Origin: Candidatus Heimdallarchaeota archaeon
GTDB taxonomy: Archaea; Asgardarchaeota; Heimdallarchaeia; Heimdallarchaeales; Heimdallarchaeaceae
Length of the DNA stretch: 64,000 nt
Reading direction: 5' to 3'
Assembly (NCBI GenBank): GCA_019057815.1
Contig: JAHLWR010000002.1
Span: 1-64,000, forward strand
This document shows, one piece after another, positions 12,248-35,985 of this stretch (the stretch's first letter is position 1; each line of letters begins with the position of its first letter). Both the position numbers and the translations under genes were made by a program. The notes below the pieces were generated by a model. The model made no database searches. It saw only the letters and a list, made by a program, of their open reading frames with translations, and was not told the origin of the DNA.

Positions 12248-12320
12248 AGCGTGAATTCAGAGTGCCAGTTGATGTCATAGGTAGACCTCCAACGGTAAAA
12301 CCTTCGTCATAATCCACGCT
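12248..12320 (-). ncRNA. Box C/D guide sRNA targeting the 16S rRNA 530 loop
   Basis: 9-bp terminal stem; C box AUGACGA; guide AGGUUUUACCGU; D' UGGA; guide CAACUGGCACU; D box CUGA; TATA-like TTTATTTT ~25 nt upstream. Confidence 0.8.
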
Positions 12321-33613: not shown

Positions 33614-33875
33614 AGTAATCATCATCGATTTCTGTTAATTCAATTTTTTTTGTGTTCTTTATATTAAAAAATATTTGTATCTATATTCAAAAAAAAATAA
33701 TTTTAATTTTGTAAAAATATACCTTCTACCTTATTTTGCACAATATCCAAAGTGGATGAATTACACCAACTTGAAGGAAGGAGACTTCTGTTATGTTCAG
33801 TTAAATAGATATATTCTAAAATGCCCATTCCTAGATAGTCATAGAAGTAGTGATGCCCAGTTTGAGTGTTTAATC

Positions 33876-34817
33876 ATGAAATGTGACTATCCTAATTGCA
33901 AATCTGATGAAGTGATACTTTTCTATTGCTCTTACTGTAAGGGTTCTTTTTGCCCGTCTCACAAAGATTCTATTACTCACAATTGCAAAGCGTTTACGCA
34001 ACAGACAGGAACAACGCGTCCAACCCCCCAAAGCTCAACATCTCAAACACCGACACCACAAGATGTTATGAGAGCATTTGCATATCAAGTTTCAAGAGCT
34101 GTTGGAGCACAACAATCTCAAACACGAACTCAAGCACCTCCTATGGATGAAAAGGCTAGAAAGAAGTTTATAGAGAAAAAATTAACGGAAAGAGGAGATC
34201 TTTTTTCTTTTGGTAGTGAAATAATAGACATCTTGTTTGGATTTGCTTTGATTGTTCTTGTATTCGGGTTCTTCAGATATGCAAGAACACAAGAATGGAC
34301 AGGATTTGTAGTATCTGGAATCCTTGTTGCAACAGCTTTTCTACCTCATGAACTCGCTCATAAATTTGAAGCTATTAGGAGAGGACAATTCGCGCGATAC
34401 ATTTTGTGGGTTCGTGGAATGATGTTTACCTTAATTACTCTCATTTTTGGTATAGGGTTAATTGTTCCTGGATTTGTTGCAATTGTACCTTTAACTCGAC
34501 AAATGAATAAGAAAGACTTAGGTATTATTGCTTTAGCTGGTCCCGCAATAAATGTTGTTATAGGCGTGGTAAGCTTGGTAATTGGTTTACTTACCCACTT
34601 TGCAATCATCCCATTCAGTGGTCTTTTCTCAGATCCTAACATTTTCATTCAAATTGCTCAATTTAACGCTTTAATAGCACTTTTCAATTGCATCCCTATC
34701 TGGCAGTTGGATGGGGCTAAGATTTTAAAATGGAACAAAGTGATCTTTTTTGTCTTAATACTAGCAAATATAGCAATTGCAGTCCCAACATTTATTTTGA
34801 ATCCTGATCTTTTTTAA
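33876..34817 (+). CDS. AN1-type zinc finger fused to M50 site-2 protease
   Basis: 'CDYPNC...CSYCKGSFCPSH.....HNC'; HELAH; 'NCIPIWQLDG'; start ATG 33876. Confidence 0.88.
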   Translation: MKCDYPNCKSDEVILFYCSYCKGSFCPSHKDSITHNCKAFTQQTGTTRPTPQSSTSQTPTPQDVMRAFAYQVSRAVGAQQSQTRTQAPPMDEKARKKFIEKKLTERGDLFSFGSEIIDILFGFALIVLVFGFFRYARTQEWTGFVVSGILVATAFLPHELAHKFEAIRRGQFARYILWVRGMMFTLITLIFGIGLIVPGFVAIVPLTRQMNKKDLGIIALAGPAINVVIGVVSLVIGLLTHFAIIPFSGLFSDPNIFIQIAQFNALIALFNCIPIWQLDGAKILKWNKVIFFVLILANIAIAVPTFILNPDLF

Positions 34818-34874
34818 TCAATTTTCCAAAAATGATTAAAACAAAAAGTAATAATAGTTATTTAGTTTAGTTAA

Positions 34875-34939
34875 GTAAAGGATGAACAAGGCATTGCTGA
34901 GAGCATAGCTCAATGACGAATCATAGTTAATCTGATTAT
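34875..34939 (+). ncRNA. Box C/D guide sRNA targeting 23S rRNA helices 69 and 71
   Basis: C AGGAUGA; guide ACAAGGCAUUG; D' CUGA; GAGC-AUA-GCUC hairpin; C' AUGACGA; guide AUCAUAGUUAAU; D CUGA. Confidence 0.85.
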
Positions 34940-35985
34940 CCTTGAATTATTGGATCTATTTCTCTAAGCTCTTTAAGGTTCCTTGCCCCTAGCAAAGCCA
35001 TAACACATTTCATTTCAGTTACATAACTTAATAAATAGGTTCTGAGAGCTTTTTCTCCTCCCCCATTAATAGCTTTAAGAATAGGTAATGCTAAAGAAAC
35101 ATAATCTGCTCCCAGAAGCAAGGCTTTAATCGCTTCAATTCCAGTCCATATTCCCCCAGAAGCGATTATTTTAACATTTTTTTTATTTTCAACGGATTTA
35201 ATATTGAGAATACTCTCTGCCGTAGAAACACCCCAATTCAAGAATTCAGATGACATTAGCTTAATGGAAGGATCAGGATTACGGTAAGTTTCTATTTTCA
35301 CCCAATTTGTTCCTCCTGCTCCAGCAACATCAACAGCATAAATGTCTAATGACATCAAATATTCAGCATCTTTCTTTGATATACCACTTCCTACTCCTTT
35401 AATTATGAGTGGATATTTTAGTTCTTTAATTAACTGTGAAATACTTTTCTTTAAATTCGAAAAATCCTTGTTACCTTCAGATTGTAGAAACTCTTGTTGG
35501 ATATTTACATGCAAAGCTAAACCATCTGCCTTTATCATAGTAATTGCATTTTCCGCATCATTTACATCATACTCATCTATAAATTGACCAATGCCTAGAT
35601 TAGCTAGAAGAGGAATATCAGAAGCGATATGTCTAACTTGATATGTTGTAACTAATTCAGGATTTTCAATAGCAGCACGTTGACTACCTACACCCATTCC
35701 TATAGAAAACTCTTGACAAATTTCCCCTATAATTTCGTTGATTTTTTTTCCTTTTCTGGAACCGCCTGTAATTCCAGATATTAGAATAGGAAAATTAATG
35801 GTTTTATTCAAGAATTTGGTTTCAAGATTAATATCATTTACTGAAAGTTCTTCGAACAAAGAAGGTCGTATTTGTACTTTCTCTAATCCATTAGACATTC
35901 CTTCATACACAACATTGTTTTCCAAACAAATGCGTATATGCTCTTCTTTTCTTCTTGAAATATCTGAAAGAGGTTCTTCATCCAT
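34936..35985 (-). CDS. fni: Type 2 isopentenyl-diphosphate isomerase (FMN-dependent)
   Basis: 'RKEEHI', 'GITGG', 'GVGSQR', 'DVAGAGGTNW', 'IASGG'. Confidence 0.95.
   Translation of the reverse strand: MDEEPLSDISRRKEEHIRICLENNVVYEGMSNGLEKVQIRPSLFEELSVNDINLETKFLNKTINFPILISGITGGSRKGKKINEIIGEICQEFSIGMGVGSQRAAIENPELVTTYQVRHIASDIPLLANLGIGQFIDEYDVNDAENAITMIKADGLALHVNIQQEFLQSEGNKDFSNLKKSISQLIKELKYPLIIKGVGSGISKKDAEYLMSLDIYAVDVAGAGGTNWVKIETYRNPDPSIKLMSSEFLNWGVSTAESILNIKSVENKKNVKIIASGGIWTGIEAIKALLLGADYVSLALPILKAINGGGEKALRTYLLSYVTEMKCVMALLGARNLKELREIDPIIQG

Follow-up and report, generated by a model that had tools for sequence, protein, structure and literature searches.

We propose that the short intergenic segment at 34875..34939, on the plus strand of the 64,000-nucleotide stretch of Candidatus Heimdallarchaeota DNA analysed here (the window), encodes a box C/D sRNA with a predicted length of about 60-65 nt. 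As judged from sequence comparison, this is very probably an independently transcribed, dual-guide archaeal sRNA of the Heimdallarchaeaceae; the element is new and unannotated, and is otherwise an ordinary archaeal box C/D guide RNA of a known class. It predicts ribose methylation of an adenosine in the helix 69 loop of 23S rRNA (E. coli A1913), in a Heimdallarchaeon that is presumably mesophilic, at the position that is methylated in yeast, human and Dictyostelium.

Architecture of the element and its genomic setting

The layout described in the original prediction (C, D', hairpin, C', D) is exact to the base on the plus strand between 34879 and 34935. Box C (AGGAUGA, 34879-34885) has G at position 2 of the consensus RUGAUGA, with its GA dinucleotides intact; the position at which U is thereby replaced by G is one that we take to lie in loop L3 of the k-turn. 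There follow an 11-nt D' guide (34886-34896; ACAAGGCAUUG as RNA, ACAAGGCATTG as DNA), box D' (CUGA, 34897-34900), a 4-bp hairpin (GAGC-AUA-GCUC, 34901-34911), box C' (AUGACGA, 34913-34919), a 12-nt D guide (34920-34931; AUCAUAGUUAAU as RNA, ATCATAGTTAAT as DNA) and, finally, box D (CUGA, 34932-34935). All four boxes are therefore present, with spacers of 11 nt and 12 nt, and archaeal guides fall in the range of 10-12 nt (PMC7994747).

Box D directly abuts the stop codon of fni, just as had been noted: the minus-strand open reading frame at 34936-35985, whose stop codon is the TTA at 34936-34938, encodes a type 2 isopentenyl-diphosphate isomerase (TIGR02151, 363.9 bits; cut-off 281.3). This gene lies outside the RNA and is convergent with it. 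Upstream, on the plus strand, is a gene for an AN1 zinc-finger/M50 peptidase-like membrane protein (33675-34817), and both neighbours are conserved synteny partners of the element. No open reading frame of at least 40 amino acids covers the sRNA on either strand. About 20-30 nt 5' of box C sits an A/T-rich, TATA-like motif (34846..34858, plus strand; consensus AAAGATAATTAT, here AAGTAATAATAG), whose conservation across 26 family loci is 0.86, as against 0.57 in the spacer that separates it from the sRNA. Its position would suit a putative archaeal BRE/TATA promoter from which transcription begins shortly before box C.

The hairpin that separates boxes D' and C' has 98.9% of its cells paired (28-51% in slid controls), and three of its four pairs show two-sided changes (AU/UA, GC/CG, CG/UA). 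Its surroundings have k-turn geometry, in that the stem follows directly after box D', and on the opposite strand there is a 3-nt bulge (AAU, 34912-34914) and then G-A; we regard as strongly supported the reading of this hairpin as the canonical stem of a predicted internal C'/D' k-turn. The D'-C' linker of archaeal sRNAs is typically a short k-loop; unlike that, the linker here is a covarying hairpin, and the element further differs from archaeal dual-guide sRNAs in the G at position 2 of its box C.

Across the family the terminal stem is weak and inconsistent (55.7% of cells paired), only 2-4 A-U or G-U pairs being possible in the source genome; in the homologues of a second family, f10, it is a clear 4-6-bp helix (e.g. 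GGCUCC/GGAGCC). Overall, the fold is no stabler than that of shuffled sequences (z = -0.91). A 7-bp helix in the minimum-free-energy structure, joining box C (34879-34885) to UUAUCCU (34936-34942), was rejected, being absent in relatives and accompanied by a z of only -0.91. The UUAUCCU segment is itself the complement of the last fni codons and stop, and can pair with box C in the source genome only; such a helix would compete with k-turn formation.

Pairing with the host 23S rRNA and a proposed mechanism

The source genome carries a single 23S gene (C23:20801-24175, 3375 nt, plus strand) and a single 16S gene (C23:18421-19894, minus strand). These lie adjacent and divergent (G000:C23:18421-24175), and are thus not one operon transcript; moreover, the 23S match is 3375 nt long and its model has 2987 positions, which implies insertions or expansion segments.

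Both guides were predicted to be antisense to 23S rRNA, and the host's own gene contains exact complements of 10 nt and 9 nt. The D' guide forms 10 contiguous Watson-Crick pairs with 23S 2037-2046 (AATGCCTTGT; E. coli 1937-1946), which by the N+5 rule points to G2040, whilst the D guide forms nine with the helix 69 loop, at 23S 2011-2019 (TAACTATGA; E. coli 1911-1919), and points to A2013. In each case the N+5 nucleotide is inside the duplex, and the two sites are 27 nt apart; host 16S has no match of at least 8 nt to either guide.

On host numbering these sites are E. coli A1913 and G1940, as had been proposed. The helix 69 loop reads UAACUAUGA in the host and UAACUAUAA in E. coli, where its three U residues are 1911, 1915 and 1917; because these anchor the numbering, A2013 corresponds to A1913. 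G2040 corresponds to G1940 because the count from there runs through a gap-free, conserved stretch. We take A1913 to be the nucleotide that contacts the decoding centre. The same loop in E. coli holds psi1915 and psi1917 (PMC2794176), along with A1912 (PMC4644070).

In the source genome and its genus-mate the D duplex is 9 bp long and AU-rich, with two G-C pairs, and position 2 of the guide is an A opposite C1910, where most relatives have G.

A chance cluster of short motifs in AT-rich intergenic DNA might be suspected from the frequency of 4-7-nt boxes in such DNA, and from a relaxed half-motif scan of the genome, which gave 12 matches in the real sequence and 8 in the reversed one. The full four-box pattern, however, searched as a strict regular expression over the 3.7-Mb genome, yields just two candidates, and only the copy at 34879-34935 has rRNA complements in both guides. 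When each guide was shuffled 20,000 times with its composition preserved, a Watson-Crick run of at least 10 that included N+5 arose in 114/20,000 for the D' guide, and a run of at least 9 in 928/20,000 for the D guide; both shuffled guides matched 23S no more than 100 nt apart (at least 8 nt each) in 28/20,000 (0.14%). Independently of the shuffles, comparative conservation excludes a chance origin, the sRNA being conserved in more than 40 genomes overall, and we therefore regard accident as effectively refuted by the comparative data and as scarcely credible. The relaxed scan, which took rRNA complementarity into account, was uninformative at these rates, and its extra matches looked like coding sequence.

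The source genome encodes the proteins of a C/D sRNP: the genes for fibrillarin (PF01269, 303 bits) and Nop5 (PF01798, 220 bits) are neighbours on contig C4 (C4:35100-36694), and that for L7Ae (PF01248, 91.5 bits) is at C38:281763-282029. We infer transcription, RNP assembly and two methylations, and the mechanism that we suggest rests on the established C/D sRNP model. L7Ae would bind in two places, at the terminal C/D motif and at the internal C'/D' k-turn, the latter closed by the covarying 4-bp hairpin, and Nop5 and fibrillarin would then assemble on the sRNA. By pairing with nascent 23S rRNA at the helix 69 loop, the D guide would bring the ribose of A2013 (E. coli A1913) into the fibrillarin active site; the D' guide, pairing 27 nt downstream (E. 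coli 1937-1946), would target G2040 (E. coli G1940). As both sites lie close together on one rRNA strand, the sRNA probably also holds the intersubunit-bridge region open during folding.

Distribution and guide-target covariation among Asgard archaea

It had been anticipated that orthologues would adjoin fni in related genomes, and these were found in other Heimdallarchaeaceae. When 60 relatives were searched at the DNA level, the sRNA was recovered from a further 26 genomes of the family, with 81-99% nucleotide identity along some 60-80 nt, and an exact-pattern scan matched Heimdallarchaeota, Ca. Heimdallarchaeum endolithica and Ca. H. aukensis among them. At every family locus where the contig shows it (about 25 other genomes), M50/AN1 is followed by the sRNA and then by convergent fni, and outside the source genus the flanking fni and M50 proteins are only about 48-63% identical. 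Columns of the 26-locus family alignment average 0.91 in conservation across the sRNA, where boxes and guides hardly vary, and 0.57 in both flanks.

The boxes themselves were compared in an alignment of 22 homologues (A1), in which the GATGA of box C and the ATGA-N-GA of box C' are invariant, as is the CTGA of box D within the family. Box D' follows the pattern C-N-G-A in all homologues (CTGA, CCGA, CAGA, CGGA), and the homologues from Ca. Heimdallarchaeum (L026, L027), like every one from families f10 and f20, have the canonical U at position 2 of box C.

These last two families emerged from a covariance model (R1), built from 22 sequences and searched against 150 genomes of the phylum. In the source genome its sole match is the element itself (34874-34940, 85.8 bits). 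Matches were obtained in 12 of the 13 genomes of the element's own family (f1), in 11/26 of f10 (which contains records labelled Thorarchaeota) and in all five of f20 (which contains records labelled Njordarchaeota), with one copy per matching genome, and in none of the genomes sampled from families f3 (0/4) and f5 of the same class. All homologues carry the invariant guide core TCATAGTTA, 2 nt before box D, and all copies therefore aim at A1913. Position 1910 of 23S is C in the Heimdallarchaeaceae and in f10, where most guides have the opposing G and so form a 10-bp duplex; in one f20 genome (G089) it is G, and the guide has C, again giving 10 bp. Since the core of the D guide is invariant across three Asgard families and covaries with 1910, we argue that there is selection on the pairing register. 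The element is a well-supported example of an Asgard box C/D sRNA, for which a usable covariance model is now available and the order M50/AN1, sRNA, fni serves as a synteny anchor.

These comparisons also bear on whether the element is an RNA gene at all. It takes up a short gap between convergent genes, right against the stop codon of fni, as might a conserved DNA- or mRNA-level element (a terminator or regulatory site shared by M50/AN1 and fni) with an accidental likeness to a C/D RNA. Such a site, however, would leave unexplained the two adjacent rRNA complements and the guide-target covariation; neither a G+C-rich terminator hairpin nor a T-run is present, the overall fold is no stabler than shuffled sequences (z = -0.91), and in f10 and f20 the homologues have unrelated genes as neighbours but retain boxes, spacing and guide. 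We consider this reading very improbable, and an sRNA gene remains the one that we prefer.

The D' guide has a different history. Most family members keep it, and its target is identical in 16/16 recovered family 23S sequences, but one subclade (G014, G016, G017, G024, G026, G029; loci L019, L021-L025) has lost the D' complementarity (an example of its diverged guide is AAAAAUGAGUG), whilst keeping the sRNA and the D guide. In G014, G017 and G026, the three members with 23S recovered, the 1937-1946 target has not changed, and D' function is thus dispensable at least in this subclade, where the guide is either retargeted or decaying. By lineage, the D' guide is directed to G1940 in the source genome (10 bp) and to G1945 in f20 (10 bp), and in f10 it forms only 6-7 bp, near 1933-1934 of the family's own 23S. 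The element thus presents a case of double-guide evolution, in which a fixed D guide covaries with its target, whilst the D' guide shifts among G1945, G1940 and loss.

A real box C/D sRNA might, in the source genome, act as a single guide or mainly as a folding chaperone, producing one methylation, or neither at high stoichiometry. This would accommodate the sister subclade, which retains the RNA without D' complementarity, and the f10 D' guides, which pair over 6-7 nt only, together with the source genome's own D duplex of 9 AU-rich pairs where relatives have 10; a chaperone role for closely spaced double guides has, moreover, been proposed (PMC4644070). The constancy of the D guide core in three families and its covariation at 1910 argue otherwise, as do the 10 perfect pairs of the D' guide in the source genome, and a 9-bp duplex is within the archaeal range (10-12-nt guides, PMC7994747) for a presumed mesophile. 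On balance we think a single guide or chaperone unlikely, and favour two working guides.

Some apparent extensions of this distribution were set aside. Matches in metagenome-assembled genomes (MAGs) labelled 'Nitrososphaerota' and 'Crenarchaeota', which would have placed the element in TACK archaea, are identical sequences from one genus (g32) of family f20, in the same phylum, and pattern matches in a Nitrosomonas MAG (L037) and a 'Thermococci' MAG (L047) are taken to be due to chance, being without upstream C and D' boxes.

Helix 69 is itself variable in some families. In f3 (L089-L097) the loop sequence is UAACCAUGA, in which C stands where E. coli has psi1915, and in L093 it is UAACCUUGA; the compensated guide, TCATGGTTA, was found in 0/12 genomes of f3, and its matches elsewhere were at the control rate. 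In genus g8 of family f4, from the same order (L098-L100; G033, G035, G037), helix 69 is radically different and is without the universal UAACUAUGA loop, having a stem GGUUUG/CAAACC with a loop AAUAUC or longer, and a 6-nt insertion in L099; R1 did not find an sRNA homologue in the one f4 genome searched.

Relation to archaeal and eukaryotic guide RNAs

The element is outside every curated Rfam family. At gathering thresholds there was no Rfam match in the whole window, and relaxing the search to E up to 10, over 111 nt, gave weak C/D-type matches only, none near a gathering score; sR52 (RF01306) and sR2 (RF01139) agree in box architecture only, at 14.8 and 10.6 bits against gathering scores of 50 and 42.

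By target, the closest archaeal sRNA is sR91 of Ignicoccus hospitalis (label I91), whose D guide is directed to 23S A2179 and whose D' guide to G2211 (PMC4644070, Additional file 1). Alignment position A2178 is E. coli A1912, so that A2179 corresponds to A1913, and G2211 to G1945. The two RNAs share the C, D', C', D layout and guides of about 12 nt and, as compared by target positions alone, a D guide on the same helix 69 adenosine with a D' guide on the neighbouring strand. They differ in the D' target (G1945 for sR91, G1940 for the Heimdallarchaeaceae element) and in their hosts, a hyperthermophile and a low-G+C Asgard archaeon, respectively; it is with the f20 homologues that sR91 has exactly the same pair of targets, A1913 and G1945. 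A further sRNA, sR40, has its D' target at G2206 (PMC4644070, Additional file 1), which is E. coli G1940. Each of A1913, G1940 and G1945 is thus already a predicted sRNA target in Crenarchaeota, and helices 68, 69 and 71 are hotspots of archaeal methylation, with dense predictions around A1912 (Dennis 2015, PMC4644070).

The identification of A1913 with yeast Am2256, the target of snR63, was likewise borne out. Yeast psi2258 and psi2260 are E. coli 1915 and 1917 (PMC2794176), and in the host the U that matches psi2258 comes two nucleotides after A2013, which makes A2013 the counterpart of yeast A2256, human A3739 and Dictyostelium A2522. A RiboMeth-seq study of Dictyostelium equates Am2522 (CD4) with yeast Am2256 (snR63) and human Am3739 (U46) (PMC8817022), and in eukaryotes the site has been mapped as Am by experiment (PMC8817022, PMC2794176). 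By alignment, snR63, SNORD46/U46 and CD4 act on this same helix 69 nucleotide, in a loop (UAACUAUGA) that is common to all, and their guides likewise adjoin box D, with an identical register. These eukaryotic RNAs exceed the element in length and, so far as is listed, have this site as their only target.

Likeness in sequence is confined to the guide and box D. The 3' guide and box D of DdR4, a Dictyostelium family in Rfam that has probably been renamed CD4, align to 34919-34937 with 17/19 positions identical, scoring 12.9 bits against a gathering score of 70; the matches of both DdR4 and GlsR7 span guide and box D only, and a cmscan of all Rfam families with E up to 10 gave no match to the snR63 or SNORD46 models. 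In view of this low score, and of the unmatched snR63 and SNORD46, we read the DdR4 likeness as what a shared target forces.

The original prediction saw in this shared site a bearing on the ancestry of snoRNAs. At the level of rRNA position A1913 is indeed shared with eukaryotes, but the ancestry argument is weaker than was stated: crenarchaeal sRNAs have already been predicted to act at these sites (PMC4644070), and the target shared with eukaryotes is therefore not specific to Asgard archaea. For the same reason our view of snoRNA origins is unchanged, and functional constraint, rather than descent, may account for the shared target. A bolder possibility, which we put forward tentatively and think doubtful, is that the D guide to A1913 belongs to one continuous lineage, running from an Asgard ancestor (possibly together with Crenarchaeota) to the eukaryotic snR63, SNORD46 and CD4, whilst its partner D' guide drifted along the adjacent strand. 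The proposed course of that drift is G1945 in the Njord-like f20 and in Ignicoccus, G1940 in the Heimdallarchaeaceae, and loss or weakness elsewhere. Were this so, it would be one of very few snoRNA families traceable across eukaryogenesis.

In the literature searched, we found no catalogue of Asgard box C/D sRNAs. The same window holds a second candidate, at 12248-12320 on the minus strand, to which the original prediction also referred and which looks plausible. In reverse-complement order it reads AGCGUG, GAUUAUGACGA, AGGUUUUACCGU, UGGA, a linker, AUGACAUCA, ACUGGCACU, CUGA and CACGCU (terminal stem); host 16S contains an exact complement of 10 nt to its D' guide (CGGTAAAACC, at 468-477), and a 7-nt complement to its D guide (GTGCCAG, at 455-461).
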